NCBI GenBank assembly: GCA_014728295.1
Contig: WJLW01000019.1
Coordinates: 72,527-136,526, forward strand
Length of the DNA stretch: 64,000 bases
Direction of reading: 5' to 3'
From: Chitinivibrionales bacterium
GTDB taxonomy: Bacteria; Fibrobacterota; Chitinivibrionia; Chitinivibrionales; WJKA01
The position numbers were made by a program, and so were the translations under genes. A model generated the notes under the pieces. The model was not told the origin of the DNA and made no database searches. It saw nothing but the letters and a program-made list of their open reading frames with translations. The first letter of the stretch is position 1; every line of letters starts with the position of its first letter. This document shows positions 5,124 to 23,306 of this stretch, piece by piece.

Positions 5124-5335
5124 GCTGCATTAAACTTTAATGAATTCAAGCATAGTTAACAAATTCAAAGCGTTACGTTTTCATTAAACGCCAGTGCAGG
5201 CATTTAGTGCGGCAGACGCGTCGATTGCACGATCTATGATAAATTAATTCAAATCATCACTTTATGCACAGAAAAAAAAATTGAGCGCTTAAATTACGTA
5301 AATCGGGATGCATGCACCCGGCACGTCATGAGTGA

Positions 5336-5610
5336 TCAAGGCCTGAGATAAAGTGTTTTTACCTCAAAAGGCGCGAATGAAATCTCTACTTCTTCCCCTT
5401 CCCGCCAGTCGAAAAGGGTTTCGCAGCGCAACAGCTTACTGCCACGGCGTAGCGAAAGCACCTGATTAATGATCGAATTGCCTACCGCATAGGTCAAATT
5501 CATTTCCGCGCAGAGAGAATTCGCAAGGATAACGTTTTTTCAATTAATTGGGCCTGTTGCGGAGTTGTGCTGCGAAAATAATCGAACACATTTCAGGCCT
5601 TTACTGCTTT
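5336..5610 (-). pseudogene. Internally deleted remnant of a GH38 alpha-mannosidase-like gene
   Basis: ORF 5503-5336 reads MNLTYAVGNSIINQVLSLRRGSKLLRCETLFDWRE-GEEVEISFAPFEVKTLYLRP, joining the GH38C S.I.Q...L..GS....TxxDWxE motif directly to the terminal PFE(I/V)KTL motif. Upstream, across a frameshift, A*NVFDYFR resembles the AWDI..Y motif. Confidence 0.6.
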
Positions 5611-5696
5611 TGGATCCGGATTGTTCCAGCTTAAGGAAAATGCGTCCGGTGGTGCAGCAAGTCAAAACTGGATCGTACCTGAAATCAACGCATCCG

Positions 5697-5722
5697 GTTT
5701 TCCGGACGGTAATCCGGAAAAC
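5697..5722 (-). terminator. Stem-loop just downstream of cheY (possible terminator or mRNA-stabilising hairpin)
   Basis: Perfect 10-bp inverted repeat GTTTTCCGGA/TCCGGAAAAC with a 6-nt loop; no clear U-tract. Confidence 0.4.
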
Positions 5723-5725
5723 GCG

Positions 5726-6082
5726 TCAGAGGCCGAGTTTTTCTTTGAACACTTCGGGAGTGAAGGGCTTGACGATATACCCATTAGCTCCGGCGCCGAC
5801 GGCTTCGATAACCTTGGATTTTTCGGACTCGGAAGTGACCATAATAATTTTAACATCCTTGTAAGCAGGATTCTGGCGCACATTCCTGAGCATGGCCATG
5901 CCGTCCATAATCGGCATATTAATATCGAGCAAAACTATGTCCACGGGCATGTTCTCGGCCAGTTTCTCCATTCCTTCCTGACCGTTTGCGGCATCGATGA
6001 TATCGGTGATACCGATGCCGCCCAACTGGTTCCGCTGTATTTTATGCATGGTGTTCGAATCATCAACCAGCAAAACACGCAT
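5726..6082 (-). CDS. cheY: CheY-like single-domain response regulator
   Basis: VLLVDD, LLDINMP..DG, IMVTSE and YIVKPF motifs; next to cheX. Confidence 0.9.
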   Translation of the reverse strand: MRVLLVDDSNTMHKIQRNQLGGIGITDIIDAANGQEGMEKLAENMPVDIVLLDINMPIMDGMAMLRNVRQNPAYKDVKIIMVTSESEKSKVIEAVGAGANGYIVKPFTPEVFKEKLGL

Positions 6083-6094
6083 TGTGCTACCTCC

Positions 6095-6553
6095 CTATTT
6101 CGTCTTGAGCGCCACTTCCATGGCAAAATCCCCGATCGGAGAGCTGAGCGGAACAATAATGGTAGGAATTCCGCTTTGCACCTCGATGCGATGATCGGCG
6201 CCGACGACTACATTCGGAAGTGAAATTGACAAATTATATTCGGTTAAATATTGTTTTGCATTGCCGGCAATAATATTGGCAATTTCGCCAATGCCGTCAA
6301 TCAATTCGGCACCGACTTCTTTAACTTCCGCGCCGATAAGCGTGGAGACGACCTTGAACGCAATATCGCGTGGAAAACTGACCGAAATCAGTCCTTGCGC
6401 TTCCCCGGACAGACCTATTACGCCCGATACGTCGAAGGCATGTTTGGCGTCCTTTTTCAGAGTGGGGGCGCCGATGGCCAGCTCGACGTTGAGCATTGTT
6501 TTAAACGTATCGTCGGTTGCTTTGAGAAAAGGATTAACAAATGAAACGTCCAT
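6095..6553 (-). CDS. cheX: Chemotaxis phosphatase CheX
   Basis: VNPF, DVSGVIGLSG, GEIANIIAGNAK and ISLP.VV.G signature motifs. Confidence 0.92.
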   Translation of the reverse strand: MDVSFVNPFLKATDDTFKTMLNVELAIGAPTLKKDAKHAFDVSGVIGLSGEAQGLISVSFPRDIAFKVVSTLIGAEVKEVGAELIDGIGEIANIIAGNAKQYLTEYNLSISLPNVVVGADHRIEVQSGIPTIIVPLSSPIGDFAMEVALKTK

Positions 6554-6711
6554 TGTTCACATTCTCCCGGATCTGATTGTAAATGATTCAAGGTGCATTC
6601 GTGACAGCAGGTCGACCTGGTTGATGCACGAATTGAGCTAAAGCTCGTATCATGCATCCATTATATCCCAATACCAACTACAAATCAATACATTTGTGAA
6701 ATAGCAGGCGC

Positions 6712-7050
6712 TTATGATTTTGCAATTGATTTGGTAATGCAGGCTGTTTCGCCAACGGTAAACAATGTATCAAAACAACAGGTTCTTATCAGCGATCTGA
6801 CCACATTGCTCGGGGAAAGGATGATCAATTCTTTGCCGTGTTTGGAAATGACTTTATGCAGATATATTAAGCCGCCGAGCCCCTGGCTGTTAATATACGT
6901 TGCCTTGCTGAGCTCAATGCATATCCTCCGGTAGGAGCTGTTTTTCAAGCTCTCGACCGCGCGCTGCAATTCTACAATATTAGCTCCGGCGATTTCACCT
7001 TCAACATAGATGATTTCGGTATCACCAAAATCTGCGGCATTAATGTTCAT
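6712..7050 (-). CDS. STAS-domain anti-sigma factor antagonist
   Basis: 112 aa; GEI, IELSKATYINSQGLGGL with the conserved Ser. Confidence 0.85.
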   Translation of the reverse strand: MNINAADFGDTEIIYVEGEIAGANIVELQRAVESLKNSSYRRICIELSKATYINSQGLGGLIYLHKVISKHGKELIILSPSNVVRSLIRTCCFDTLFTVGETACITKSIAKS

Positions 7051-7175
7051 TCGGGCTCTTTTAGGGATTCAGCGTTAAGGCAAAAATGCAGCGCGTACAC
7101 GCATTTTTGTTACGATGATCTTTGTAATTGTATCTCCGAATTTGCATTTAGTCAATACCTGCAAAGAAGATACTG

Positions 7176-9371
7176 TCAGCTTTGCTTTTCAACAAGATGT
7201 GCAATGATTTTCACTATCTCACTTGCTTTGAATGGCTTGGAAATAAATTCATTCATCCCTGCCACGATACATTTTTCCCTCTCCTCCCGACTCTTCGCAG
7301 CAGTAACGGCAATGATCGGCACTGCCGTGCCTTTTTCCGATTGCCTGATGAGTTGCGTCGCTTCATAGCCGTCCATAACCGGCATGCGACAGTCCATAAA
7401 TAAGATGTCATATTGTTTTTCTGCAGCGGCATCCACAGCCTCGCGACCATTGTGGGCAACATCACAGCGTATCCCCTGCTTTTCGAGCACCAGCGTCAGT
7501 ATCTTGCGATTTACGATATTATCATCCACTATCAATGCATATAGTCGATTGTTGCACAACTCCTCGGCCAGATGCTTGGTTATCAGACTTTTCTCAGAGG
7601 TGGGCTGTGGATTTTTCAATAAACCCTTGAGCAGCGCCAGTGCATTATATAAATGAGATTGCTTGATTGGCTTGGTTAGATAGCCACGATAACCGTGGTT
7701 CTGCAAAAACTGCGCATCACCCCGGCGCGCTTTGGCGGTCAAACACACCAGAGGAATATTTATGAGCTTTTGATACGTGTGAATTTCCTGCGCAGTAGCT
7801 ACATAGCGTTCCAGATCCCCCCCTTTATAATCGACAATGGTAACATCATAGCTTGCACCGCTGTCTGCCGAGGTGTGCAATACTTCGATAGCCTGCTCAA
7901 GCGTTTCGGCCTCAAAGCAGTTTCCTCCCCAGTGGGTTGTATAAAGGGACAGCACTTTGCGACTCGTTGGATTATCGCTTAAAACGAGTATGCGTGCACC
8001 ATACAGATTTTTTTCGGGACTGATTTTGCGAGGTTCAATTTCATCCGCTCGATCCAAAAGTGCAGTGAACCGAAAGGTACTGCCGGATTCCGGCTCGCTT
8101 TCCACGTCGATTTCGCCACCCATGAGTTCCACCAGCTTTTTTGAAATTGCCAAGCCCAGCCCGGTTCCACCGAATTGACGCGAAATCAATTCATCAGCCT
8201 GCTCAAAGGATTGGAATATTTTTGCCTTCACTTGGGGGGCAATACCTATTCCGGTATCACTGACCTCGAAAAGGAGCTTGATCTGTTTATCACCTGCAGC
8301 AGTACCGTGAGGATCGAGGCTGACCTGAATAAACACTTCCCCTTTTTCGGTGAACTTAATGGCATTGCCGGTCAAATTGAGGAGTATTTGCCGTATCCGT
8401 TCCGGATCGCCAACCAGTATCTCCGGTACACCGGCGTGAAAAAGAGCCGCCAGCTCCAGGCCTTTTTCCTGCGCTCGAATCGACATCAATTCGGCCACAT
8501 CTTCAACCGCCGTTCGGATGTCAAAATCAATGTGAGAAATCGGGGTTTTATCGGCTTCAAGTTTTGGGTAGTCAAGCACATCATTTACCATGGCCGCAAG
8601 CGAATCGCCTGATTTCTTGATCGCATCGGTATAATTCTTCTGGTCTTCGTCAAGCTCAGTGTCCAGCAGCAGCTCCGTCATGCCCATGATACCGTTCAGC
8701 GGCGTGCGGATTTCGTGACTGACATTGGAAAGGAACATGCTTTTGGCCAGGGTATCCGCTTCCGCTCTGGCTTTGAGTTCGCTCAGGTGCTCGACCATTT
8801 TTTTGAGCTCATCGGTACGGTACTCGACCTCTTTCTCCAGCTCGATCTGATGCTCCCGATTCTTTTTGTCAAGATCCCACTTGGTTGTCAATGAAAGTGC
8901 AATTTGCTTGACGGCAATAGCGTCAAAGGGCTTTTTTATAAACATCAAGTGATCTGTCCGCCCGAACTTCTCCATTATCTGATCCCAGGAATAGTCGGAA
9001 TATGCAGTACAGATGACCATTTCGATATGCGCATGCTTTTGCCAGATTTGCTGGATGGTTTGTATGCCGTCGATACCGGGCGGCATTCGCACATCCATAA
9101 AGGCCAGCGCATACGGTCTGCCCTCCCGGACGGCTTCATCCACCATTGCTACAGCTTCTTCACCCTGATGGGCATCGTCGATGATGTACTTCACGGCATC
9201 ATCAGAAGCGTCAATTCCTTGGGGAATGCTCTTTTCCCCAAACAATTCTTCTTCCAGGAATCGCGTCTCGGTATCTTTGTCTTTCGCCGCCGGGCTGAGG
9301 ATATGCTTGAAATCTTCATGAATGGCGGCATTGTCGTCAACCAGAAGAATTCTTTTTTCAGATAGTGACAT
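7176..9371 (-). CDS. Cytoplasmic hybrid histidine kinase (REC-HisKA-HATPase-degenerate REC-REC)
   Basis: Start taken at MSLSEKRILLVDD (9371); FMDVRMPPG; SHEIRTPLNG; GDP.RIRQ..NL.GNAIKFT; DTGIG; GGTGLGLAI; C-terminal LFMDCRMP. Confidence 0.92.
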   Translation of the reverse strand: MSLSEKRILLVDDNAAIHEDFKHILSPAAKDKDTETRFLEEELFGEKSIPQGIDASDDAVKYIIDDAHQGEEAVAMVDEAVREGRPYALAFMDVRMPPGIDGIQTIQQIWQKHAHIEMVICTAYSDYSWDQIMEKFGRTDHLMFIKKPFDAIAVKQIALSLTTKWDLDKKNREHQIELEKEVEYRTDELKKMVEHLSELKARAEADTLAKSMFLSNVSHEIRTPLNGIMGMTELLLDTELDEDQKNYTDAIKKSGDSLAAMVNDVLDYPKLEADKTPISHIDFDIRTAVEDVAELMSIRAQEKGLELAALFHAGVPEILVGDPERIRQILLNLTGNAIKFTEKGEVFIQVSLDPHGTAAGDKQIKLLFEVSDTGIGIAPQVKAKIFQSFEQADELISRQFGGTGLGLAISKKLVELMGGEIDVESEPESGSTFRFTALLDRADEIEPRKISPEKNLYGARILVLSDNPTSRKVLSLYTTHWGGNCFEAETLEQAIEVLHTSADSGASYDVTIVDYKGGDLERYVATAQEIHTYQKLINIPLVCLTAKARRGDAQFLQNHGYRGYLTKPIKQSHLYNALALLKGLLKNPQPTSEKSLITKHLAEELCNNRLYALIVDDNIVNRKILTLVLEKQGIRCDVAHNGREAVDAAAEKQYDILFMDCRMPVMDGYEATQLIRQSEKGTAVPIIAVTAAKSREEREKCIVAGMNEFISKPFKASEIVKIIAHLVEKQS

Positions 9372-9408
9372 GTCGGTATCCACTCCCCGCTTTAAAAAGG
9401 GACAATCA

Positions 9409-11118
9409 TCACGCAGCCTCTTTCTCAGCCTGCTCTTCAAGCGGAAACGAAATGACGAATGTCGCCCCCAGACCTTCACCATCGCTTTGCGCACAGAGTC
9501 TGCCGCCCATCTCTTTCATGTAATTGGCGCTGCTGTGCAAACCAAAACCATGTCCGTCCTGTTTGGTGGTAAATCCGTGAGCGAATATCTTTTTGATATC
9601 ATCCTGCGCGATTCCCGCACCGCTGTCTCTGACTTTGATGAAGGCATGCGTCTGGCTTTTGTCAATAGTTACCTTGAGCTCCCGCCTCCGGTCGCCCACC
9701 TGCGTCATCGCTTCTTTTGCGTTTTTGAGCAAATTGATAAGCACGTGGACCAGTTTGGTTTTCTGGACATGAACGGGTGGTGTGGGATGATAGTCGCGCG
9801 TGACAACAATGTTGAATTTTTCAATCGAGCCGCTTTGCATGGTCAAGGCATCTTCCACTACATCACCCAGGGCAACTTCCTCCCTCAGAGAACCTGCTCC
9901 GGCATAGCTTTGTTGCGCTGCGATTACCTCACATATTGCATTTACCTTGTCGGTCAACCGTCGCAAGTGAGAAAGTGTTTCTTCGTGCTCTTCTTTAAAA
10001 GCTTCTTCCAGCTTGAGGTAATAGTGCATCAGCTTTTTGCCCTTTGGATTTCGGGCGATAAAATCTTCAAGCGAATCCAGATTTTGGCGCAGCAACCGAT
10101 TTGCCTTGCTCAAGTCTTCGGTATGAGAATTTTCCAGGATCTCATCAATTACGTGTACAGAAGTCGATACGCTATTAAGGATATTGCCTACATTATGCAA
10201 TGTACCGGTGGCGATGTCGGCCATGCCTGCTTTATGCGCTTTTTCCACAATCTCCTGCTGAGCCGCCTCCAACTGTTGCGTACGCTCCTTTACCAGTGAC
10301 TCCAGGTTGTTGGTATATTTTTGAATCGTCTTGCGCATCTCCTCGAAGTTTTCAGCCAGAATGCCAACCTCGTCATCCGACATGGCCTTTATGTGTACGG
10401 AATAATCGCCCTGCGAAATAGTATCGGCCGCGCTCTTGAGTTGATCGAGCGGACGGGTAATGGCATTTGCCTGACGCCGGGCGGCCAGCGAGCCAAAGTA
10501 GAATATCAGCAGCGCCACTCCAAACATGATCAGGGCAAAGGTATAGATTGTCTTTTGTAAATCTCCCTTGGCGCGGGCAATAGCCAGACCCATTGACATG
10601 GTCGTGATCCCGTAGCGAATAGTTCCCTGTCGAACTTCTTCTATGCCGATCGGCGCCGCAAATTCGATTACGTGGTCATCATCAACGCGAGACTTTTTGT
10701 ATTCGATATTATCAATGGCATGCGCCCACAACGCAAGCGAATCTTCCAGCACGCGCACATCTCTGACAACCCCATACGGATTGCCGGCATCAGCCAATGC
10801 CCAGGGCCGCCGTTCGGCATCCATGTAGATACCGTAAATGACGTCAGGATCTTTTTCAACCGTAGCGGCTACCAGCTCCTGTATACCGGAAAATGAGTTA
10901 TCCTCGACCATGCCGCGCAGCGCAATGCGGTTGTTGGCGACCAAGAGATTTCCTTTGCTGATCAGATTGTTTTCGATACGAGACTCAATTTCTTGGAATG
11001 ATTCGCGTATGCTAATGACACCCAGTATCGCGCCGATGACAAGGAGGGCCCCGGTCGAACCGAACAATAGCTGAAAAATCAGCCGCAGCAGCTTATCGCG
11101 AATGCTTACAAAGTTCAT
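9409..11118 (-). CDS. Membrane sensor histidine kinase with periplasmic domain and HAMP
   Basis: Two TM segments; HAMP (ITRPL..L...A..IS.GD...DEVG.LA..F..M); AGMADIATGTLHNVGN H-box; NLLKNA, DSGAG, FTTK..GHGFGL. Confidence 0.92.
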   Translation of the reverse strand: MNFVSIRDKLLRLIFQLLFGSTGALLVIGAILGVISIRESFQEIESRIENNLISKGNLLVANNRIALRGMVEDNSFSGIQELVAATVEKDPDVIYGIYMDAERRPWALADAGNPYGVVRDVRVLEDSLALWAHAIDNIEYKKSRVDDDHVIEFAAPIGIEEVRQGTIRYGITTMSMGLAIARAKGDLQKTIYTFALIMFGVALLIFYFGSLAARRQANAITRPLDQLKSAADTISQGDYSVHIKAMSDDEVGILAENFEEMRKTIQKYTNNLESLVKERTQQLEAAQQEIVEKAHKAGMADIATGTLHNVGNILNSVSTSVHVIDEILENSHTEDLSKANRLLRQNLDSLEDFIARNPKGKKLMHYYLKLEEAFKEEHEETLSHLRRLTDKVNAICEVIAAQQSYAGAGSLREEVALGDVVEDALTMQSGSIEKFNIVVTRDYHPTPPVHVQKTKLVHVLINLLKNAKEAMTQVGDRRRELKVTIDKSQTHAFIKVRDSGAGIAQDDIKKIFAHGFTTKQDGHGFGLHSSANYMKEMGGRLCAQSDGEGLGATFVISFPLEEQAEKEAA

Positions 11119-11139
11119 AACAGATGCCGACAGCCCATC

Positions 11140-11475
11140 TCAACTGCCGGTAACTTCCTCCCTGGAGGATATGAGCGGCATGATTTTATCCAGATAAGCC
11201 AGCTTGACAATATCGAATACGTCGGGATTGTTGTCACACATAAGATTGACGGTTATTTCTTTTTTTCTGGACACGTGATACAACTCCAGAATCTTGCTGA
11301 TAAACCTGCTGTCGGGTAGTGAACACTCGTTAAAATCGAGTATGATATTTTCAAGCTCATCGGTGACCTTTTCGCTCACCTGCTTATAAAACGTCTCGGC
11401 ATCCCGAAATGCAGATATCGATCCGATCAGCTTAATAACGAGAGTCGTATGAGTTGTATCGAGGGCAACTTTCAT
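11140..11475 (-). CDS. STAS-domain protein
   Basis: 111 aa; IILDFNECSLPDSRFIS; start overlaps the stop of the upstream PP2C gene. Confidence 0.75.
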   Translation of the reverse strand: MKVALDTTHTTLVIKLIGSISAFRDAETFYKQVSEKVTDELENIILDFNECSLPDSRFISKILELYHVSRKKEITVNLMCDNNPDVFDIVKLAYLDKIMPLISSREEVTGS

Positions 11476-13262
11476 TCCGGCGTATCCTTTTTGCGGTAGG
11501 TTATGACTACCGGGCTTTTTCCGCCGTCGATAAACTTCAGCGAATCGACAAAACTCTTTACAAGGTGCAAACCGATATTGGCCGCATCCTCTAACGGCTG
11601 AAGATTGGCATCGGCTTCGAGCGCATGCTGATAATTAAATCGTTTGCCCTCATCGGCAACCCCGATAAGTATACGCTCGGTATTCACATGATAGGCGATA
11701 TGAACCCACAGATCACGGTTGTCGTTGTTGCCCTGTTTGACGGCCTTGAGCAAAATCTCGATGATGACCACTCGCATCTGTTTGATGGTGCGATCGTCAA
11801 AACCGTTTCTGTCAAGTTCTTTCAGGATCACATTGCAGCATCCGTCAATATCCGCTTCTCGGTTTATTCGAGTGTAATTCAACTGGTAAACCGATTCATT
11901 CCCGGGAAGCACCCGAGCAAGGCCGGCGACGAATTGACTCTGGGCAATTTCAACGACAACGACGCATACGTCATCGGACCGTTCCTGGTGCTGCATGTAT
12001 TCTGTATTGACTTTCAGGATTGTATCAAGAAACATTTTGCAGTTCATTTGAGCGGCATACTTCTGAACCACATCATGCAATCCTTTTTTGCCGAACATTT
12101 TGCGGTTGTCGTCAAAAACTTCGGTAAAGCCGTCGGTGTACATGATAATTTTATCGCCCTCTTCAAATTGCACAGAAACAACGGGGTATTCGGCGTCGTC
12201 AAACAAACCAAGGTAGAATCCCGTGCTTTTGAGCGAATGCAGGCAATTTTGTCTCTTCTTGAAGTACTGCGGCGGCACATGTCCCGCGCTGGAATAAGTT
12301 GCCGTGCGATGTTCCAGATCAAGTATCATGATAAAAGCGGTAACATACATTTCCGGTGTCGTGCAGGCAGTTATATCTTTGTTGACGCGCTCGAGAATCT
12401 CGCCAGGTGAATGCGATTTCTGTAAATGGCTCCTAAAGGAAGCCTTTCCGATAGCAGTAATCAGGGAGGCGGCAATGCCGTGCCCGGAAACATCAAAGAT
12501 ATATATGGCAACCGTTTTGGCATCCAGTTGCACTATATCGTATAAATCTCCCCCGACTTTTGCGCAGGGGATATATTTCGCTGCAAGTAGCAACAGTTCG
12601 AATTCGGGTATCGACTCAGGCAGAAACTGATGCTGCACCCGCTCGGCAAGATCGAGTTCGTTCTGGATCTGCTGAATGTAAAACTCCCGTTCACTCAGGG
12701 TATCGTTCAGCTTTTGGGTGCGCTCCTTGATTTTATCTTCGAGATTGTTAATATAGTGCCTGTTTTCAAGGGCAAGGTGCCACTTTTTGGTGAGCGCCAG
12801 AGCCGTCTGCTTAAGTGCAACGGCATCAAAGGGCTTGCGCAGGAACAACAGCTTGTCACTGGTTCCCAGCTCGTTGAGAATATCATTCCAGGAATAATCC
12901 GAATACGCAGTACATATGACTATCTCGATATCAGGGTGTCCCGACCAGATTTCTTTTATGGCTTTTATCCCGTCCATGCCGGGAGGCATGCGCACATCCA
13001 TGAAGATGAGTGCATAGGGATCATTGATCTCTTCGGCCCTGCGCACCATTTCCACTGCCTGCTCGCCCTGATATGCGTCATCTATCTGGTATTCGATGCG
13101 TTCCGACACGGGCGCCTGCTCAATGCCTGCTTCATCGCCAAACAGTTCATCGGCCAGTTGGTTAATTTCGCGGTCGGTTTCCCGCCTCGACAGGCCTATA
13201 ACATTTTTAATATCATCGTGAATCGACTTGTTGTCGTCTACAACTAAAATGCGCCGCTTCAT
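11472..13262 (-). CDS. REC - SpoIIE/PP2C phosphatase - RsbW-like HATPase (degenerate) fusion
   Basis: REC (VDD, FMDVRMP, RKPF); PP2C motifs GGDLYD, DVSGHG, SAGH, YTDG, DD; C-terminal EILLKAVKQGN...DEGKRF...GLHLVKSFVD. Confidence 0.9.
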   Translation of the reverse strand: MKRRILVVDDNKSIHDDIKNVIGLSRRETDREINQLADELFGDEAGIEQAPVSERIEYQIDDAYQGEQAVEMVRRAEEINDPYALIFMDVRMPPGMDGIKAIKEIWSGHPDIEIVICTAYSDYSWNDILNELGTSDKLLFLRKPFDAVALKQTALALTKKWHLALENRHYINNLEDKIKERTQKLNDTLSEREFYIQQIQNELDLAERVQHQFLPESIPEFELLLLAAKYIPCAKVGGDLYDIVQLDAKTVAIYIFDVSGHGIAASLITAIGKASFRSHLQKSHSPGEILERVNKDITACTTPEMYVTAFIMILDLEHRTATYSSAGHVPPQYFKKRQNCLHSLKSTGFYLGLFDDAEYPVVSVQFEEGDKIIMYTDGFTEVFDDNRKMFGKKGLHDVVQKYAAQMNCKMFLDTILKVNTEYMQHQERSDDVCVVVVEIAQSQFVAGLARVLPGNESVYQLNYTRINREADIDGCCNVILKELDRNGFDDRTIKQMRVVIIEILLKAVKQGNNDNRDLWVHIAYHVNTERILIGVADEGKRFNYQHALEADANLQPLEDAANIGLHLVKSFVDSLKFIDGGKSPVVITYRKKDTPE

Positions 13263-13349
13263 ACCTGCTCTATTCGATATGCGTTGCTGCCACTATTAAA
13301 TTGTAGTGCAATAGCTGATAAAATGCAATCGGCTTTTCCGAATTCGTCT

Positions 13350-15488
13350 TCAGAACCGAAAACGCATTCCCAGTGAAACATGTCGACCGTATTGACCGAG
13401 CGTGCCGTTCCATACCGTTAAATGATTCTGATCGGTAATATCGGTAATGTTGTCAAGGTAAAGATAAATATCCATAAAATCATATGGGCTGTAGCCGATA
13501 TTCAAATCGAGATAGTAGAAACGATTTGTCGTGGCATAGTTTGCTTCAGAGTCTACTTCTGCGGAACCGGCGGGTGCGGTGCGGTACTTGACCGGAGCGA
13601 CAACCCGCAATGCAGGAGTACAGAATACCTTTTCTTTGAAAAAGCGGGCCGTTGCGCCCAGATTGGCGATATAGCGGGGATAGCTGAGAAGATATCCGTC
13701 CAGATCGACGCGCACGGAATTATAAGCCAGGTCCTTCGGAAAGTTGGTGCCCGTTGCTATCGAATAATACCCGTTCGTCCAGATTTCGTGGCGTTCAAGC
13801 AGCCGCAAAGTAGCATCCACTTCCACTCCCTGAGACTGATAATCACCGGAATTGGCAAAACCCTTATAGCTGATGCCAGAAAGGATATTGATAAACCCTT
13901 TCAATTCCTGCCAATAATAGGTGGCGGCGAATGACACCAGGCCCAATTTCTGCAACCACTGAATGTCAATTTGATTCATTTCCTCAGATTCAACTCTGGC
14001 GCCGGCACTCTGGAAATTTGCCGGGCGAAGGAAACCTTTGTTGTATATAATTTTGAGTGCCGTCTGTTCAAATGGGTATGCCATGAGTGCGACGCGGGGA
14101 TTGAAGTTATAGCTGTCGTCGCCCCGGTCGGGATTGTAATCACCGCGTATGCCCAGCACGAAAGCAAGATAGGTAATCGGCTGTATGTTGAGCATAGCAT
14201 ATCCACCTAACTGATCGTCTTCAAGATATGGATCGGTCCAATAACCGTTTTTCAGATAGCCCAGCTCAAGGGAATCCAACGCCCGCATTGAATCTGTCAA
14301 ACCTATCGATAAAGTATCATCGCGATTTTTGGGATCGTCCGGATTGATATCATTTACGCTCTGATTTGGTCCGATTTTGGTAAATGCGTAATCCATTCCA
14401 CCGTTAAGCTCTATCCGTTCGCTCCAGAATGATTTTTGCACGTCAAGCGAAGTGCCAAATCGTCGATCCATCCAGACAATATTGAAAGGAAGCTTCTGCG
14501 GTTCTCCCTGCACCATCGGAAAATATTCGGCCCGATTGAAATCGGACGATACCTTTGCCGTCGTTACCAAATCGCTGAACCAGTTTTTCTCGTATATACC
14601 CTCAACAAATGTTTTGTGCGTCGTCAAATAATTTTCCCGACCGCGTCCCCATTCAAAGTGCCTATTAAATACCTCGGTAGAAAACGCATAGGCATTGATT
14701 CCCAATTCTCCTGCGTTCCCTTTGAATTGGAGCATATATCCCGGCCGGTGCTTATCGAGCATCGTCGTATAGGCCCCATGCGGATGATCACCATACCCGG
14801 TTGCAGTTTCCAGAATCGGCAGCGTGGTGGCTGCGGACTCGGTTATCTTTCTGCCCCCCTGCTTGGCAAACGAGCCCATCAGCATAAAGTCAACATCCTT
14901 GTTCAATCGCTGACCCACCTGTACATCTGCGACATAATAGTCATCCTGACCAATGCGCACCTGCCCTCTGACCATCCGTTCACCCAGGTCTTCGGCCGTA
15001 CAGGTTATTATGTTGATCACCCCGGCCAGCGCATCCGGACCCCAGACGGCCGAGCCGGGCCCGCGAATTATTTCGATCCGGCTTACATTACTGAGATTAT
15101 TCGGCAATTCGATGATTTGGCCGGGACCGAAATTTTCAATTGAATTCATGCGGTGGCCGTCAATCAGTATGAGGTACTTTTGATTATTATCACTGACATT
15201 TCCCCGCGCGGCAAATACCCATTCATCCCGATCGGCTATTAACGGATAGCCAACGCCTCTTCTGAGTACGTCCTTAATGTCGCGACTGCCCCATTCGCTG
15301 ATTTGCCGGGCCGTCACAACCGTTACATTCGATGGGGCTTCAAAGACCGTTTCCTTTCTCTTCGATGCCGTTGTAATTTCGATATTCATCAAACCGCTAA
15401 GCGACAAGTCGTCAATGACATCGCTGTTTTCTCCGGCGCAAATTGCAACAACAGCAAGAACCGGTAAAATCATTGTTCGTGGAGACAT
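13350..15488 (-). CDS. TonB-dependent receptor
   Basis: Signal peptide; LSLSGLMNIEITTASKR..APS..TVVT plug start; LILIDG; RIEIIRGPGSAVWG..A.AGVINIIT; C-terminal ...LGMRFRF. Confidence 0.92.
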   Translation of the reverse strand: MSPRTMILPVLAVVAICAGENSDVIDDLSLSGLMNIEITTASKRKETVFEAPSNVTVVTARQISEWGSRDIKDVLRRGVGYPLIADRDEWVFAARGNVSDNNQKYLILIDGHRMNSIENFGPGQIIELPNNLSNVSRIEIIRGPGSAVWGPDALAGVINIITCTAEDLGERMVRGQVRIGQDDYYVADVQVGQRLNKDVDFMLMGSFAKQGGRKITESAATTLPILETATGYGDHPHGAYTTMLDKHRPGYMLQFKGNAGELGINAYAFSTEVFNRHFEWGRGRENYLTTHKTFVEGIYEKNWFSDLVTTAKVSSDFNRAEYFPMVQGEPQKLPFNIVWMDRRFGTSLDVQKSFWSERIELNGGMDYAFTKIGPNQSVNDINPDDPKNRDDTLSIGLTDSMRALDSLELGYLKNGYWTDPYLEDDQLGGYAMLNIQPITYLAFVLGIRGDYNPDRGDDSYNFNPRVALMAYPFEQTALKIIYNKGFLRPANFQSAGARVESEEMNQIDIQWLQKLGLVSFAATYYWQELKGFINILSGISYKGFANSGDYQSQGVEVDATLRLLERHEIWTNGYYSIATGTNFPKDLAYNSVRVDLDGYLLSYPRYIANLGATARFFKEKVFCTPALRVVAPVKYRTAPAGSAEVDSEANYATTNRFYYLDLNIGYSPYDFMDIYLYLDNITDITDQNHLTVWNGTLGQYGRHVSLGMRFRF

Positions 15489-15507
15489 AACTCTGCCCTC
15501 GGCTGAA

Positions 15508-16509
15508 TTATTTGATAATGCGGTCTATTTTTTCCAATGCACTTTCATGTAACTGAAGCATATCTTTTGCATTTGCAAAGTTGAGTATTTTGAGTACCGA
15601 GAGCGGCTCCTGCACGACCGCTTCGGCAAAAACGTGATCATTGTCAAGCGCTTCGCGCATTAGCTGTGCAGCCTGCATGCCGATATTGCGATTGTCCGGC
15701 AATACGGCAAGAGTTCCCAGGCTGACCGGCGGTTTGACAAGTACATCTACACCGACCAGGAGAGGAAATTTCAATGATTGTTTTTTTGCAAGCCAGACAT
15801 TCTGCAATAGGTCGCTGTTGAGCAATCCATTGTCATTGGGAATCCACAATGCGTCGACGGAGGTAGTGCGCGAAAAACCGGTGAGTATCCCGGCTAACTC
15901 CCGCGCCATATTACGAGGTTCATTCTTAATTTCCCGTGCGATGATCTCGATGCCCTCCCTGGTGCAGTAGCCTTGCTGCCGTTTGACATAATCACGCATG
16001 AACGCCCGGTACACAACTCCAATTCTGGTCAATGCACCCCCTTGCAGAGAACGCAGACTGATTGCAGACGTTACCAGCGGTACTTCGTATGCTACTCCGG
16101 CAGCATTGTCAATCCGACCAACCGCCTTTTCGATAAATACACCCATTAGCAGAACGGCAGGGATTCTTTCAAGTGAGTCGGCTAAGTCACTTTGAAATTT
16201 GCGATACAGCCTAAAGGACTGATTGTCCATCAGGAAAATTGCTCCGGGATGGAGTGAAGCAATAGCATTGGCAAACTTTGCCCGATCAGTGCCTTTGTCA
16301 ACAATAAGTTCGCTGAAAGAATAGCCGTCTTCTAATTCTTCTTTTATGCCCCGGGCCGCATCGACAAAGCTTTTACCTTCGCATCTGACAATGAGCATCC
16401 GCTCCCCGGCCAATACGGCAAAGCTGATGATAGTCAGCAGACATAAAGATTTCTCGAGTGCCCTGAAGAAAAAAAACTGCCGGGTTTCAGACAATAAAAA
16501 TGTGAACAT
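15508..16509 (-). CDS. Periplasmic ABC-substrate-binding-like protein (type 1 periplasmic binding fold)
   Basis: Hydrophobic leader; RIGVVY, VDALWIPND, G.LAV.PD...IG.QAAQL and LN pattern like the ABC_sub_bind family; no permease or ATPase nearby. Confidence 0.7.
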   Translation of the reverse strand: MFTFLLSETRQFFFFRALEKSLCLLTIISFAVLAGERMLIVRCEGKSFVDAARGIKEELEDGYSFSELIVDKGTDRAKFANAIASLHPGAIFLMDNQSFRLYRKFQSDLADSLERIPAVLLMGVFIEKAVGRIDNAAGVAYEVPLVTSAISLRSLQGGALTRIGVVYRAFMRDYVKRQQGYCTREGIEIIAREIKNEPRNMARELAGILTGFSRTTSVDALWIPNDNGLLNSDLLQNVWLAKKQSLKFPLLVGVDVLVKPPVSLGTLAVLPDNRNIGMQAAQLMREALDNDHVFAEAVVQEPLSVLKILNFANAKDMLQLHESALEKIDRIIK

Positions 16510-16666
16510 ATTTCATAGTTTATATACTTCACACATAAGATGCAAGTAAAATGCAATTGACAAGCGGCCCATCATTCCATGACCATGTGTTCTCTACTCG
16601 AAAATGCCGGATCGCGTGCTATGTGCTCAGAGCTTACTGCAATTGAGACAGGTGAATACCCCTTGA

Positions 16667-17156
16667 TCAGGAGAGCAGCTCCCGCAGCATCTCCAGGTCT
16701 ACCGGTTTCTCAAAGATCAGTCCGCCCTGCGCCGCCAGCGTCTCGACCGGCAATGCTGCTTTATCCCGGGTGCAGAGCACGATACGTGCAGCGGGATTGA
16801 TGGTTTTCACATTGGTGAATACATCTGTTGCCATTTTCCAGTCTGTCGGCTCATCCATGTCAAGTATAATGCTGGTAATTGTGTTATCAAGACAATGATT
16901 GACGGCTTTTTCCGAATCGTCAAACCAGGTCTCTTCAAAGATACCCCGGATGCCATAGAGAAAATTGCGCATAAAATGTGACTGCTTGCCGTAGACAATC
17001 ACTTTTTGTTTTTCCAGCGGAGTCGTGCGAGATTCCGAAACTTCAGGGGCTGGGCTACGCGTGCCCCGTGCCTTTTTTTGCATGGCCTTATCGCGTTTGA
17101 TCTGCGACAATTGTTTCATAATCGCTTTGCGGTTGTCTTCAAAATTGTCCGTCATG
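16667..17156 (-). CDS. Atypical receiver-domain protein with basic N-terminal extension
   Basis: IILDMD, LCT and FEKPVD match a REC fold, but the acidic pocket DD is replaced (VIVYGK); start uncertain (17156 or 17182). Confidence 0.65.
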
Positions 17157-17168
17157 ACAACAATCCTT

Positions 17169-17525
17169 TTAATTGCCAGCATCTTGCTGAGTTAACTGAG
17201 CTTGGACATGTTGGTAAACGCGTTGAATTTCTGCGAGCATACTTGCGGGATTCTCCAAATTTGCTCGGCGTGCGCCGAATTCCAGTTTTTCTGCATGACT
17301 GCCCAGCAGCATCGCACCAACTGTCCGGCTGGTGCTTTTCAGTGAATGGGCATGGCGTTCGAGTGAAGTTGCATCCCCGTTGGCAATATCAGCCGAAAGC
17401 TCCTGCAGCAAACGCGGGGTTTCTTCCAAATAAGCGGCTGCAACTTCGTCGTATATCTCCAGGTCCCCCCCCATTTCCCCCAAGGCCCTCTGCTTGTCGA
17501 TCAAAGCTTCTTCCCGCATATGCAC
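17169..17525 (-). CDS. Hpt histidine phosphotransfer protein
   Basis: AL..MGGD..IY, RHAHSLKSTSRTVGA and LE motifs. Confidence 0.9.
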   Translation of the reverse strand: MHMREEALIDKQRALGEMGGDLEIYDEVAAAYLEETPRLLQELSADIANGDATSLERHAHSLKSTSRTVGAMLLGSHAEKLEFGARRANLENPASMLAEIQRVYQHVQAQLTQQDAGN

Positions 17526-17531
17526 TATCCT

Positions 17532-20147
17532 TCAGGTATGCTCAACCTTGCCTCTGCTGACTGCTGGGCTCTCTGCGGTCCAGTGAGTCACTTTTTCGAT
17601 GAGCTCTTTTTTATTTATCGGTTTGCTTAGGTAATCATCCATTCCCGCATCAATGCACTTCTGCTTATCGCCCTTCATGGCGTTGGCGGTCATCGCAACA
17701 ATGGGAACGTGGGCACCGCCTTCGACCCTTGCTTCACCCTCACGGATGGCACGTGTAGCATCATAGCCGCTTAATACGGGCATCTGACAGTCCATCAGAA
17801 TTAAATTGTATATCTTTTTTCCCTGTTCCTCAAGCGCCTCCATGCCGTTATGGGCGACATCACATATGAATCCCGCCTTTTCCAGCATCTTTATTGCCAC
17901 TTTTTCGTTGACGGGATTATCTTCCGCAAGGAGAATACGGATTTTGGCTTTATTCACCTCCTCGGCAAGGGTGTGCCGGGTAACCAGCGCTGAGTCGTAC
18001 GAGCTACCTGCACTCTCTGATTCACTGCTCCTTGCCACAACCAGGCTCAGGCAATCGGCAAGGTTAGCGTGCTTGACAGGTTTGGTCAGATATGCCTCCA
18101 CCCCTACTGATTTCATGAGCGAAGCATCTCCCCGATTGCCGATCGCGGTAGTAATCACAATGTGCGTACGCGCCAGCTTTGGATCCGCTTTTATGAGCCT
18201 GGCAAGTTGCACCCCGTTCATGCCGGGCAGTTGCATGTTGATAATAGCCACATCAAAGGGCTTGCCGTTGTCAATTCCCTGGCGCAAAACATCCAAAGCC
18301 CCGTGGGCGTCTCCACATTCACTGGAATGTGTATCCCAAAGTGCAAGATAGTTGAGCAAGGATGTACGGCCGGCGCTATTGGGATCAACAAGCAGAATGC
18401 ACTTGCCTTTGACCTCGCCCCTGGGTCGCAGAGTTGCCGGAGCGTCCTCGGGAGCTTTTTTAAACCGGATTCGAAACCAGAACGTCGAGCCGTCGCCTTC
18501 ACGGCTGGTAACCCCGATCGCGCCTTCCATAAGCTCGCTCAATTTTTTCGAAATTGCCAGCCCCAACCCGGTGCCCCCGAATTTGCGGGTAGTCGAAGCA
18601 TCGACCTGCTCAAACGGTTTAAACAGATTTTTCACTTTGCTTTGCGGAATACCGATGCCGGTATCGCGTATTTCAAAATGCAGTTTGATGAAGTGTTTGC
18701 TTTCTTCATGCACTCCGGCAGAGAGCACGACTTCGCCTTTGTCGGTAAATTTGACGGCATTGCCGGCCAGATTGACAATCACCTGACGGAAGCGCCCGGG
18801 ATCGCCGATGACCCGTGAAGGAATTCTGGAGCTGATAATCGAAGCAATCTCGAGTTCCTTCTCATGGGCCTTGAAAGCCGCCAGCTCCATTGCATTTTCT
18901 ATTGCCGTGCGTATATCAAATTCAATCTCCTCTGTTTCGATTTTGCCTGCTTCGATTTTCGAAAAATCCAGTATATCATTGATCAGGCTGAGCAATAATT
19001 CGGCCGAACTCTGTATGCTCTCGGCATATTCCTTTTGCTCGAGAATGAGTTCGGTCTCGCGCAACAAGCTGTTCATCCCCAGTATGCCGTTCAGCGGAGT
19101 GCGTATTTCATGCGACATGTTAGCCAGAAATGCGCTCTTTGAATTGTTGGCCGCTTCGGCGCGAACACGCGCCTTAACCAGCTCCTGATACGTACGTTCC
19201 TGCTCGGTAATATCAACAAATGTTTCGATACCGCCAATTATTTCACCTTGATCATTTTTAATAATGCTGGAATTTTTCTGTATGGTTCTCTCCGAACCAT
19301 CTTTGCATTTAATGATACACTTTACCTTATTGGCAGAGGCGATGACCGATGTGTCCTGATGAGCACAGCATATGTCCGAAGCACTATACAGTTCCCGGCA
19401 GTTCTTCATGAGCACATCTTCTATGCGATATCCGGTAATCTGCTCGGCCCACTTGTTAAAACTGAGGATAGTCCCATGCTTATCTACTGTGTAAATAGCG
19501 CAGGGAGCAATATCATTCAAACGTTCGGCGCTCTCCTTGGCTTTAAGCAAGTCGCTTTCGACGATTCCGCGTAACTTCATCTGCTCCTGCAACTGGCTTA
19601 CAATTTTTATTTGCGTGTACTCATAGAAAAAGGCAATAATCGAGGTTATGGCAAATGCACCGGTAAACCTTACTTTGAATTCCAGAGAATATTTTGCCGA
19701 AACCTCATAAAGCGGCGGCAAAAAAAAGATGAGAAATATTAAAACAAAGAAAGTGCCGCTGGCAATGGCGCCATGCAACAAGCCCAGCAGAAAAAACGTA
19801 CCTACCGGAAAGATAAAACACCACAACGCGCCGGTATAATCCACACTCTGCGACATGATCAGATATAAGAAAAAAGGTGCAATAACTCCCAGGGAAATAT
19901 AGGAAGCCACTTTGGAGTTGCCGGTTTGAAGCAAGTAGGCAAAAGCCACAGCCATTCCAATGAAAGCCAGAAAATCGATAATTGACAGGGCGTAATTTTC
20001 GTCAATCAGCGCCGTAATACCAAAGGTCAACCCAAAAAGTGCTCCAATGATCGTCGTGATCAAAACCAGATAATAGCGTGACTGGGGCACATTGGAAAAT
20101 TTGGTATCGGTAAGTACATTGAAATGCGTTGCATTGCTTTTTTTCAT
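17532..20147 (-). CDS. Multi-TM PAS hybrid histidine kinase with two receiver domains
   Basis: About 6 hydrophobic segments; PAS (FN..AE.ITGY); FLANMSHEIRTPLNG; NAVKFT; GGTGLGL; LAEDN..LMDCQMP..SKP. Confidence 0.93.
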   Translation of the reverse strand: MKKSNATHFNVLTDTKFSNVPQSRYYLVLITTIIGALFGLTFGITALIDENYALSIIDFLAFIGMAVAFAYLLQTGNSKVASYISLGVIAPFFLYLIMSQSVDYTGALWCFIFPVGTFFLLGLLHGAIASGTFFVLIFLIFFLPPLYEVSAKYSLEFKVRFTGAFAITSIIAFFYEYTQIKIVSQLQEQMKLRGIVESDLLKAKESAERLNDIAPCAIYTVDKHGTILSFNKWAEQITGYRIEDVLMKNCRELYSASDICCAHQDTSVIASANKVKCIIKCKDGSERTIQKNSSIIKNDQGEIIGGIETFVDITEQERTYQELVKARVRAEAANNSKSAFLANMSHEIRTPLNGILGMNSLLRETELILEQKEYAESIQSSAELLLSLINDILDFSKIEAGKIETEEIEFDIRTAIENAMELAAFKAHEKELEIASIISSRIPSRVIGDPGRFRQVIVNLAGNAVKFTDKGEVVLSAGVHEESKHFIKLHFEIRDTGIGIPQSKVKNLFKPFEQVDASTTRKFGGTGLGLAISKKLSELMEGAIGVTSREGDGSTFWFRIRFKKAPEDAPATLRPRGEVKGKCILLVDPNSAGRTSLLNYLALWDTHSSECGDAHGALDVLRQGIDNGKPFDVAIINMQLPGMNGVQLARLIKADPKLARTHIVITTAIGNRGDASLMKSVGVEAYLTKPVKHANLADCLSLVVARSSESESAGSSYDSALVTRHTLAEEVNKAKIRILLAEDNPVNEKVAIKMLEKAGFICDVAHNGMEALEEQGKKIYNLILMDCQMPVLSGYDATRAIREGEARVEGGAHVPIVAMTANAMKGDKQKCIDAGMDDYLSKPINKKELIEKVTHWTAESPAVSRGKVEHT

Positions 20148-20170
20148 ACAGATGCTTCGGACGAAAGTCG

Positions 20171-20545
20171 CTAAATTCCCATACTAAGGCTTTCCATAAT
20201 CTTGGCGATGAGGTCTTCTTGTGAGAAAGGCTTCATAACATAATTCTTTGCGCCCGCCCCCACCGCTTCTACTACTTTGTGACGCTCGATTTCGGTGGTG
20301 ACCATCGTAACCGGGATGGTCTGAAAACGCGCGTCGGCTTTGATTGACTTGAGCATTTCGAGCCCGTTCATATTGGGCATATTCCAATCGAGCAGTATAA
20401 GATTCACCTTACCGTTTTCACGTTCCAGCAGGTCAATTCCCTCCCTGCCGTCACCAGCTTCCAAAAATTCAAAACCCAGAACGTCAACCGCATTTTTTAT
20501 GAACTGCCTGGTCGTTTGTGAATCGTCAACGGATAGTATTCGCAT
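20171..20545 (-). CDS. cheY: CheY-like response regulator
   Basis: Start taken at MRILSVDDS (20545); LLDWNMP.MNG; MVTTE; YVMKPF. Confidence 0.88.
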   Translation of the reverse strand: MRILSVDDSQTTRQFIKNAVDVLGFEFLEAGDGREGIDLLERENGKVNLILLDWNMPNMNGLEMLKSIKADARFQTIPVTMVTTEIERHKVVEAVGAGAKNYVMKPFSQEDLIAKIMESLSMGI

Positions 20546-21404
20546 ACACTGCTCCTGAAGCTTTTGCCTGGTAGTAGAGCCCGCGGGTATAGCGCTGCAT
20601 CTGGAAATCGCTCGTATAATTGATGATCGATTCAGAAGCACCAAGAAACAAAAATCCGTCGGGTCGCAAAAGCTGTGCAATTCGTTTGAGAATATCACGC
20701 TTAAATGTGTCTGCAAAGTAAATAAGTACATTCCGGCAGAATACAATATCACGCTTACCTACTACCGCAAGCGGCTCCTGCAAATTGAGCTTTTTGAAGG
20801 TCACCATATTCTTAACCTCATCGCGCACAGCCCAGACTTTGCCGTTCTGCGTAAAGTATTTCGACTTGAGAGAGTCATCCATACCGCGCGATATTGCCAG
20901 ATTGTCGTAGCGTCCCGCCATGGCGAGGAAGAGTACGGATGGTGAAATGTCGGTTGCCAGGATGTCGAACTGATCGGACCGCAATCCGGGATGACGGCGA
21001 ATATAATCAAGAATAACCATGGCAATCGAATACGGCTCTTGTCCCGTTGAGCTTGCTGCGCTCCAGATACGCACTTTGCTGCGCTTACCGCTTTTTATTT
21101 CCGCAACATATCTGTCAAGCAGAACCGAATCAAGTATTTCGAAAGGAGATTTATCACGAAACCACAGGGTTTCATTGGTGGTCATGGCATCTACAATTTT
21201 ATCACGCAGACCGTTGGTTTTGTCTGCGGTCGCCTTTTGATAAAACTGCATAAAGGTTGAACAGCCATTTTCTACCATCAGGGTCGTCAGGCGCGTCTCA
21301 ACCAGGTACATTTTATCTTCGGTTATATGAATGCCGCAGCTTTTTTCTATATAATCCCGCATCATGCGAAATTCATTTTGATCAATGCGATTTGCCGGGG
21401 GCAT
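20526..21404 (-). CDS. cheR: Chemotaxis methyltransferase CheR
   Basis: TTNETLWFRD, RIWSAASSTGQEPYSIAM, ATDIS, DIVFCRNVLIYF and LGASE motifs. Confidence 0.95.
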   Translation of the reverse strand: MPPANRIDQNEFRMMRDYIEKSCGIHITEDKMYLVETRLTTLMVENGCSTFMQFYQKATADKTNGLRDKIVDAMTTNETLWFRDKSPFEILDSVLLDRYVAEIKSGKRSKVRIWSAASSTGQEPYSIAMVILDYIRRHPGLRSDQFDILATDISPSVLFLAMAGRYDNLAISRGMDDSLKSKYFTQNGKVWAVRDEVKNMVTFKKLNLQEPLAVVGKRDIVFCRNVLIYFADTFKRDILKRIAQLLRPDGFLFLGASESIINYTSDFQMQRYTRGLYYQAKASGAVYANTIR

Positions 21405-21439
21405 AGATGATCCTTTATACTTAATGGTCACGCACGCAA

Positions 21440-22015: not shown

Positions 22016-22033
22016 AGCGCTTCCTCGCTTTCC

Positions 22034-23128: not shown

Positions 23129-23147
23129 ATCCGACCCGTATACCTGA

Positions 23148-23306
23148 TCATGTTACGCCCCCGGCATTGAATGCCGAAGAATACTTTTTGTCGGTTCTCA
23201 TAGTGTGGGCAACCAGCCATTCCGTGAGAAAAATCATGATAGCCTTTAATATCATTGCTAAACCAGCTTCTTCGCACGGTGCGGGAAGGGCGGACTTGAA
23301 CTTCAC
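23148..23306 (-). pseudogene. 52-codon remnant ending in a bacteriohemerythrin C-terminus; possibly a deleted hemerythrin or MCP-hemerythrin gene
   Basis: AAGGA, then GTG 23306: VKFKSALPAPCEEAGLAMILKAIMIFLTEWLVAHTMRTDKKYSSAFNAGGVT*. FL.EWL..H....DKKY is the last iron-ligand helix of hemerythrins. Confidence 0.65.

Follow-up and report, generated by a model that had tools for sequence, protein, structure and literature searches.

A TonB-dependent receptor, a binding protein without a transporter, and a membrane kinase as a candidate envelope sensor with branched output in a Chitinivibrionales genome

When genes for a TonB-dependent receptor and a periplasmic binding protein stand beside signal transduction genes, with no transporter genes among them, do the encoded proteins serve to take up a compound or to report on it? 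The question is raised by a block of seven genes in a Chitinivibrionales bacterium of the phylum Fibrobacterota. The block lies at positions 6712 to 16509 of a 64,000-nucleotide stretch of contig WJLW01000019.1 (assembly GCA_014728295.1), which is called the window here. A first-pass annotation of this DNA had claimed seven co-directional genes, and an open reading frame (ORF) listing of the window gave all seven, on the minus strand and at the same coordinates. Domains were assigned by Pfam and NCBIfam profile matches, with a Pfam threshold of E ≤ 0.01 for the binding-protein ORF, and they agree with the domain types that had been claimed. The block had also been said to hold no ATP-binding cassette (ABC) permease, ATPase, or catabolic gene. 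We found none in it, and the genes scanned at 1 to 27 kb of the window likewise included neither an ABC permease or ATPase nor a catabolic enzyme. The genes and their main parts, from the 5′ end of the block, are as follows.

15508..16509, minus strand: periplasmic binding-protein-like gene, 333 amino acids; N-terminal signal-peptide-like segment and two-lobed class I periplasmic binding-protein fold of the PF04392/3LFT lineage
13350..15488, minus strand: TonB-dependent receptor, 712 amino acids; Plug at 15018-15344 (50.5 bits)
15360-15410, minus strand: pre-plug motif of the receptor, DLSLSGLMNIEITTASK; conserved, occupies the TonB-box position
11472..13262, minus strand: protein of a receiver (REC) with an insertion, PP2C, and GHKL domain, 596 amino acids, HsbR/CrsR-like; Response_reg, SpoIIE, and HATPase_c_2 matches
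12768-13262, 11946-12521, and 11523-11834, minus strand: REC, PP2C, and RsbW-like domains, respectively, of the REC-PP2C-GHKL protein
11140..11475, minus strand: STAS protein 1, 111 amino acids; STAS match of 31.4 bits; an orthologue follows the REC-PP2C gene in related locus L062
9409..11118, minus strand: sensor kinase, 569 amino acids; HAMP and HATPase_c by Pfam
10549-11007 and 10321-10470, minus strand: sCache/PDC and HAMP domains of the sensor kinase, in the order transmembrane segment, sCache/PDC, transmembrane segment, HAMP
10195-10197 and 9436-9759, minus strand: conserved His308 in the unclassified dimerization and histidine phosphotransfer (DHp) domain, and the catalytic domain, of the sensor kinase
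7176..9371, minus strand: hybrid kinase, 731 amino acids from ATG 9371; Response_reg (three stretches), HisKA, and HATPase_c matches
8868-9359, 8553-8747, and 8061-8411, minus strand: REC with an insertion, HisKA, and HATPase_c of the hybrid kinase
7203-7535, minus strand: canonical C-terminal receiver of the hybrid kinase, which also has a degenerate middle receiver
6712..7050, minus strand: STAS protein 2, 112 amino acids; STAS match of 45 bits; membership in the module uncertain

The answer that we favor, at a probability of about 0.5, is that the block encodes an envelope sensor of three parts whose phosphorylation output is branched. The binding protein has no Pfam family at the threshold given above, and a weak match to the tryptophan ABC binding protein model NF041285 reached 23.6 bits against a cutoff of 390. 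An AlphaFold model built from 61 sequences (mean pLDDT of 96.4) showed a periplasmic binding protein of class I with two lobes. At the top of the Foldseek ranking were 3LFT (Trp bound), CD0873 (6HNI/6HNJ), and 3LKV, and LuxP and XylFII were among the further matches. The near-invariant residues of the family (LMDN, YExP, WxxND, and PD) lie at C-terminal strand ends in both lobes of the model. Ligands of class I binding proteins sit at such positions, and the interlobe cleft is therefore predicted to be still in use for a ligand. Compared with a PF04392-type ABC binding protein, the protein has the fold but neither a match to the sequence model nor an adjoining ABC permease or ATPase gene; one relative, P0002, bears a precomputed PF04392 label. 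The first-pass annotation had noted that receptors with such a plug start often occur with YfiR-like periplasmic proteins and sensors. The window's genome (98.8% complete) has no match to DUF4154 (PF13689), for which an E. coli control was positive, and the binding protein occupies that place instead. It can indirectly be assigned to the YfiR structural lineage, since 3LFT and 3LKV are among the nearest structures of the model and, according to PMC4655355, are also those nearest to YfiR. A HMMER search for the family gave 1469 cluster representatives, of which 421 had E ≤ 1e-30, while a word-based search for homologues gave 7 relatives. In the search for related loci, a 4-row alignment of the binding protein led to 13 loci and the single protein to no relative.

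We investigated the distribution of the binding protein and of the sensor in 296 genomes of the phylum; both of the resulting counts include the unpublished genome G253. The binding protein was found in 64 genomes. The sCache sensor domain, searched with a profile of the periplasmic domain alone, was found in 56, all of which are within the 64, so that no genome has the sensor only and 8 have the binding protein only. Six of these 8 are of one genus and have an 800-residue protein in which a related domain is followed by SH3 and DUF4388, and the other two are 81 to 84% complete. Gene neighborhoods were then read from 60 retrieved loci (designated by L and a number) with 64 binding-protein genes, in which simple ORF calls were compared with the window proteins by phmmer. 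By a rough count, a receptor is fused to the binding protein or lies within 6 kb for 36 of the 64 genes. A sensor with the same periplasmic domain stands beside 37, receptor and sensor together accompany 21, and a CheY-like gene lies within 6 kb of 27. Two ABC-ATPase-like ORFs were seen in all 60 loci, and no ABC part was seen among the 46 annotated neighbors of seven loci without a sensor. Homologues of the receptor and the binding protein are thus linked to sensors and not to ABC transporters, in keeping with the signaling role proposed in the first-pass annotation. Relatives were also found in metagenome-assembled genomes (MAGs) of Chitinispirillaceae, Fibrobacteres, and Fibrobacterota. A Desulfobacteraceae MAG has the order binding protein, receptor, sensor; a "Ca. 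Parabeggiatoa" MAG has sensor, CheY, binding protein; and in a Polyangiaceae MAG the binding protein was found with the receptor. Gene neighborhoods, fusions (see below), and nested co-occurrence support the view that receptor, transporter-less binding protein, and sensor make up a conserved module.

Do the parts of this module touch each other? Pfam gives the receptor a Plug only, with no other N-terminal domain. Its best NCBIfam match is NF053590 (TOL_0244 family), with 98 bits against a cutoff of 645, over profile positions 2 to 187 of 604. All receptors linked to homologues of the binding protein have the pre-plug motif in common, which reads D/E-L-S-L-x-D/G-L-L-N-hydrophobic-x-hydrophobic-T. 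The window's genome has a second copy of the binding protein, in one 1090-residue frame with Plug and barrel. Among the best 150 of the 1469 cluster representatives, 9 are longer than 1000 residues; 8 of them are fusions of binding protein and Plug, and 1 ends in DUF4388. In the fusions, the binding-protein domain directly precedes the conserved pre-plug motif. Such fusions suggest that the receptor and the binding protein touch directly.

Other features of the fused relatives were seen along the way. The gene for the 1090-residue fusion (L003:8551-11823; window's own genome, C21) is preceded by one for a 230-residue secreted protein without a Pfam family (L003:11814-12506). It is followed on its 3′ side by about 1.6 kb (L003:6888-8551) with no ORF of at least 100 amino acids, where Rfam finds nothing. 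In the 588-residue protein P0096, the binding-protein domain is fused to an outer-membrane barrel of the Phenol_MetA_deg type, so that the domain is seen fused with two kinds of outer-membrane channel. Proteins of about 800 residues carry a divergent binding-protein domain at the N terminus, then SH3_3, and DUF4388 at the end. Their genes (L084:1862-4252, L088:11542-14004, and L089:5821-8265; similar ones in L086, L087, L090, L093, and L105) come from one genus and some others and adjoin a free binding protein and a receptor, in genomes without the sCache sensor.

In an AlphaFold model of residues 1 to 300 of the sensor kinase (36 sequences; pLDDT of 90.4), a transmembrane segment, one PDC/sCache-like domain, a second transmembrane segment, and HAMP follow one another. 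Structurally, the periplasmic domain comes closest to WalK's extracellular domain (4YWZ and 7DUD; TM-scores of 0.73 to 0.75) and to CitA. Compared with PDB sequences, the N terminus of the sensor gave HAMP matches only, and its transmembrane-HAMP part matches NF053592 with 47.2 bits against a cutoff of 194. The catalytic domain scores 67.6 bits. The DHp domain has no match to HisKA, HisKA_2, or HisKA_3 in Pfam. His308 lies within TLHNVGN, and LHNVGN(L/I)LNS is found in all three aligned sequences that reach the region (window, L062, and L058). The kinase core at 9409-10308, with its His box LHNVGNxLNS and about 145 residues from the histidine to the catalytic domain, corresponds to none of the Pfam DHp models. 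Relatives of this core occur in L107 to L115, and two genomes of another family have 6 to 7 copies with other N termini. The kinase type is present in at least 12 of the 296 phylum genomes, a lower bound with 8 candidates scored per genome.

The same input domain is found on other kinases. The 60 loci hold 38 ORFs with the sensor domain: 28 of 729 to 842 residues, 3 HisKA kinases, 4 of the window's type, and 3 cut by contig ends, one of the last being a repeat count from two overlapping loci. All 12 of the scanned sensors of about 800 residues are HAMP-Hpt-HATPase_c proteins with CheA-like C termini. Beside one HisKA sensor (L046), the scanned neighbor is a sigma-54 activator. One shared input domain thus appears to be joined to swappable outputs, with three kinds of kinase. 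A further arrangement was noticed in L043, where the binding-protein gene is followed by one for an sCache_3_2-HAMP-SpoIIE protein (L043:10951-12975) with a SiaA-like layout, a fourth kind of output.

To which proteins would the sensor kinase of the window pass its phosphate? The first-pass annotation had called the REC domains of the PP2C protein and of the hybrid kinase close paralogs and had suggested one donor kinase with two branches. The leading receivers of the two proteins are identical at 85 of 163 residues (52%; E of 1e-63), which bears out the first of these statements. In both, some 35 residues are inserted behind the first strand, and both keep the D, T, and K residues. Among the 62 receiver candidates of the genome, only these two are of the insertion type at E ≤ 1e-15, and the kinase core of the window has just one matching kinase in the genome at E ≤ 1e-20. 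Nine full-length kinase orthologues, with periplasmic domain and core, were available (window, L055, L058, L062, L077, and L107 to L110). A gene opening with an insertion-type receiver adjoins the kinase in eight of the nine. The adjoining genes encode a hybrid kinase, a REC-PAS-kinase, a REC-PP2C protein, or a REC-PP2C-GHKL protein with STAS. In L055, L058, L077, L108, and L111, the gene after that of the sensor kinase is an orthologue of the hybrid-kinase gene. The insertion-type receiver is common elsewhere too, where it is joined to kinases, GGDEF-EAL, or PP2C. Because a single kinase of this type and exactly two such receivers exist in the genome, and because of the adjacency in eight of nine orthologues, the HAMP kinase is most likely the donor to both insertion-type receivers. 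The suggestion of one donor with two branches fits these counts.

The first branch would end in a phosphatase. The REC-PP2C-GHKL protein has a SpoIIE match of 158.5 bits with intact PP2C metal-binding motifs, and it matches RssB (3eq2; E of 1.3e-22). Its RsbW-like domain has changes in the motifs that we take to be the N-box, G1, and G2. In the N-box, Asn is replaced by Lys and His by Gln, while all seven aligned relatives keep both residues. In G1, DEGxGF has become DEGKRF, with loss of the second Gly, and in G2, GRG has become NIG, with loss of the first Gly; both motifs are intact in the seven relatives. Because none of these substitutions is seen in the relatives, the RsbW-like domain is probably a pseudokinase in an otherwise intact switch protein, and it may still bind a STAS protein or a sigma factor. 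The gene for STAS protein 1 overlaps the stop codon of the REC-PP2C gene by 4 nucleotides, and the Ser of SLPDSRF is kept in STAS protein 1 and in its L062 orthologue. The PP2C/STAS partner switch of the first-pass annotation therefore stands as a receiver-PP2C-GHKL protein encoded next to a STAS protein but is not a canonical one, the nucleotide-binding motifs of the GHKL domain being lost. The second STAS protein that had been counted in the module does have a STAS domain, but its gene follows after a gap of 125 nucleotides. We considered it as a duplicate of STAS protein 1 and ruled this out, as BLASTP gives no alignment of the two. Its membership is weak because of this lack of similarity and because it is one of 45 STAS-family matches in the 5.3-Mb genome. 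Such a number points to a very large repertoire of partner switches in the organism.

The gaps from the binding-protein gene to the hybrid-kinase gene are 19, 87, −4, 21, and about 37 nucleotides, and further 3′ they are the 125 nucleotides before STAS protein 2 and 158 before CheX. Because the former are short, the genes from the binding protein through the hybrid kinase fit one operon. The hybrid kinase most likely starts at ATG 9371 (MSLSEKRILLVDD) and not at GTG 9494 (772-residue ORF), since the latter would overlap the upstream kinase gene by 86 nucleotides and relatives begin at the ATG residue. A scan for promoter and terminator consensus sequences gave many weak sites that left the operon boundaries unclear, and Rfam had no match at 5000 to 21000 of the window. 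The block is enclosed by a same-strand run of signaling genes, with CheA, CheW, CheB, a receiver, CheR, a MASE6-PAS hybrid kinase, an Hpt protein, and a receiver-like protein upstream and CheX, CheY, and a Ser/Thr kinase downstream. The nearest of these are as follows.

17532-20147, minus strand: MASE6-PAS hybrid kinase (by Pfam), upstream
17169-17525, minus strand: Hpt protein with Hpt-like matches to the C termini of TorS and ArcB, upstream
16667-17182, minus strand: receiver-like protein, 171 amino acids, without Pfam match, upstream; relatives in L087 and L090
6095-6553, minus strand: CheX, downstream
5726-6082, minus strand: CheY-like receiver, downstream

The receiver-like gene is immediately 5′ of the binding-protein gene, and its relatives are also near binding-protein loci (L087:6528-7079 and L090:11737-12288). 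The CheA-CheW-CheB-receiver-CheR set takes up 20526-26672 directly upstream on the same strand. Pfam recognizes no chemoreceptor among the genes neighboring it; a 709-residue ORF at 27442-29571 is without a family.

How does this compare with systems that are already known? LuxP-LuxQ, TorT-TorS, and XylFII-LytS each have a class I binding protein without a transporter role encoded next to the kinase that it controls, and in the window, too, such a protein is encoded beside a membrane kinase. We know of no dedicated outer-membrane receptor in these three systems and of no fusions to one. In FecA-FecR-FecI, a receptor with an N-terminal signaling domain signals via an anti-sigma factor and an extracytoplasmic function (ECF) sigma factor. 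The likeness lies in a receptor passing a signal across the envelope and, in the fused relatives, in an extra periplasmic domain before the plug. The window's receptor differs in being Plug-only and in the proposed relay to a histidine kinase, and no sigma or anti-sigma family was found among the genes scanned at 1 to 27 kb of the window.

A receptor, a small periplasmic protein, and a HAMP sensor encoded together are also described by the NCBIfam models for a trio of receptor, YfiR-like protein, and kinase (NF053590 and NF053592), which are the models matched by our receptor and by the transmembrane-HAMP part of our kinase. The window's proteins differ from this trio in scoring below the cutoffs (98 versus 645 and 47.2 versus 194 bits). 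They differ also in the periplasmic protein, which is two-lobed, has 333 residues, and lacks a DUF4154 match, and in the sensor domain, which has a WalK-like single PDC/sCache fold and whose relatives include CheA-like kinases among their outputs. We read the locus as a variant of the trio in which an HsbR-like phosphatase with STAS and a hybrid kinase form the output side. A literature search, with most subscription journals outside it, found no study of a TonB-dependent receptor acting with a binding protein and a kinase, nor of the trio.

In the YfiBNR (TpbB/DgcN) system of Pseudomonas aeruginosa, as described in PMC4655355, a periplasmic protein with a 3LFT-like fold stands between an outer-membrane partner and an inner-membrane signaling protein, which is the go-between role that we propose for the binding protein. 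That system has the OmpA-like lipoprotein YfiB in the outer membrane, YfiR has one lobe, and the output is a diguanylate cyclase, whereas the window has a TonB-dependent receptor, two lobes, and a kinase. The single-domain substrate-binding protein 5Z6V of Rhodothermus marinus is also one-lobed, and the passages describing it mention no receptor or kinase. For the output, PMC6482189 describes a receiver-PP2C-GHKL regulator followed by a STAS antagonist in HptB-HsbR-HsbA of P. aeruginosa and CrsR-CrsA of Shewanella oneidensis. The window has the same layout, with an Hpt gene nearby. It differs in the insertion of about 35 residues in the receiver, in a genomic partner that is a membrane kinase and not an Hpt protein, and in a GHKL domain without the conserved ATP-binding motifs. 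No sigma factor, FlgM, or cyclase was identified as a partner of the window's switch.

From the domains, folds, gene linkage, fusions, and co-occurrence described above, we infer the contacts, the direction of the signal, the ligand, and the final targets of the sensor that we propose. The TonB-dependent receptor would admit or present a specific ligand, which the transporter-less binding protein would take up in its interlobe cleft. The loaded binding protein would dock on the WalK-like sCache domain, like LuxP on LuxQ or TorT on TorS, and docking would switch autophosphorylation of the kinase at His308. The kinase would then phosphorylate the two paralogous insertion-type receivers. In one branch, the receiver would control the PP2C domain acting on the adjacent STAS protein 1, in a switch like that of HsbR and HsbA, with the kinase-like domain of the REC-PP2C protein probably just a binding module. 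In the other branch, the receiver would control the hybrid kinase, with an onward relay perhaps to the nearby Hpt protein.

Several points weigh against this reading. The phylum genomes are related and not independent, and the sensor profile was built from sensors beside binding proteins, which favors co-occurrence. The receptor query is divergent and matched about 150 N-terminal residues, which is why the receptor counts are rough. The binding protein is within 6 kb of the kinase in just five of the nine full-length orthologues. The RsbW-like domain, the part that would phosphorylate the STAS protein in an HsbR-type switch, is without conserved ATP-binding residues. Lastly, a pure ligand shuttle has no need of the contact between receptor and binding protein that the fusions argue for. 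Such contact is central to the main rival, a YfiBNR-type sequestration, in which the binding protein would hold the sCache domain in one state until the N-terminal segment of the occupied receptor captures it and frees the sensor. The cleft would then bind a peptide segment of the receptor and not a small molecule, with downstream phosphorylation as above; the two explanations differ just in the occupant of the cleft and in the contact between receptor and binding protein. In favor of sequestration, the best NCBIfam match of the receptor is the receptor model of the YfiR-like trio, and fusions repeatedly place the binding protein immediately ahead of the pre-plug motif, where FecA-type transducers have their signaling domain. 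But a fused binding domain cannot be released, so that a conformational change would be needed, and the modeled protein has kept both lobes, with conserved residues at cleft-type positions that would suit a small molecule. We consider sequestration unlikely, with perhaps one chance in a few.

The shuttle and its rival share the assumption that the HAMP kinase feeds both receivers. It also counts against our reading that the upstream MASE6 hybrid kinase could feed them through the Hpt protein, as HptB feeds HsbR, a regulator of the same three-domain layout (PMC6482189); the HAMP kinase would then serve another partner or act as a phosphatase. The hybrid kinase, the Hpt gene (17169-17525), and the receiver-like gene are directly upstream on the same strand, and Hpt genes occur near the related binding-protein loci L042, L075, and L076. 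However, a phmmer search with the window's Hpt protein found no Hpt-like ORF in the eight other loci with a full-length kinase orthologue, an insertion-type receiver gene adjoins the kinase in seven of these eight Hpt-free loci, and everything that the genome has of these types, a single kinase and two receivers, is in the block. We consider the Hpt route rather improbable as an alternative. The two routes are mutually compatible, and the upstream Hpt protein is possibly a second donor or an acceptor from the C-terminal receiver of the hybrid kinase. At the other extreme, receptor and binding protein might be an ordinary nutrient-uptake pair whose transporter is encoded elsewhere, with signaling genes that have no direct link to the pair or merely regulate its expression. 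The fold is that of ABC substrate-binding proteins for aromatic amino acids (3lft and 6hni), and 12 of the 64 binding-protein genes, several of them on short contigs, have neither receptor nor sensor nearby, which again tells against a signaling module. Yet ABC parts are nearly absent around the family (the 2 ORFs in 60 loci and 0 of 46 annotated neighbors cited above), and none of the 296 genomes has the periplasmic domain of the sensor without the binding protein. In addition, kinase outputs of three kinds share the one input domain, and several relatives carry the binding-protein domain in fusion with a cytoplasmic DUF4388 signaling protein. An uptake pair of this sort is therefore very improbable.

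TonB-dependent receptors signal across the envelope through sigma/anti-sigma pairs, and a route from such a receptor to a two-component kinase has so far been recognized only in annotation models. The locus and its relatives add to this route a soluble protein that is tractable, is confidently modeled, and probably has a ligand cleft. The natural fusions hint at which parts touch, the fold connects YfiR structurally with binding proteins of full size, and a locus with one kinase and two receivers is a clean case for branched phosphotransfer. More tentatively, at somewhat less than an even chance, the family may represent an undescribed class of trans-envelope sensor. In this class, the receptor would signal via a two-lobed protein of the YfiR lineage, free or fused to the receptor, in the place of the FecA-type signaling domain. 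The binding protein would gate a WalK-like sCache input that serves at least three types of kinase (CheA-like, HisKA with a sigma-54 activator, and the HNVGN type), and YfiR-like adaptors would be a reduced one-lobe form. If the module is confirmed, it would give Fibrobacterota and some Desulfobacterota, Myxococcota, and Gammaproteobacteria a widespread means of sensing compounds that are unable to diffuse across the outer membrane.

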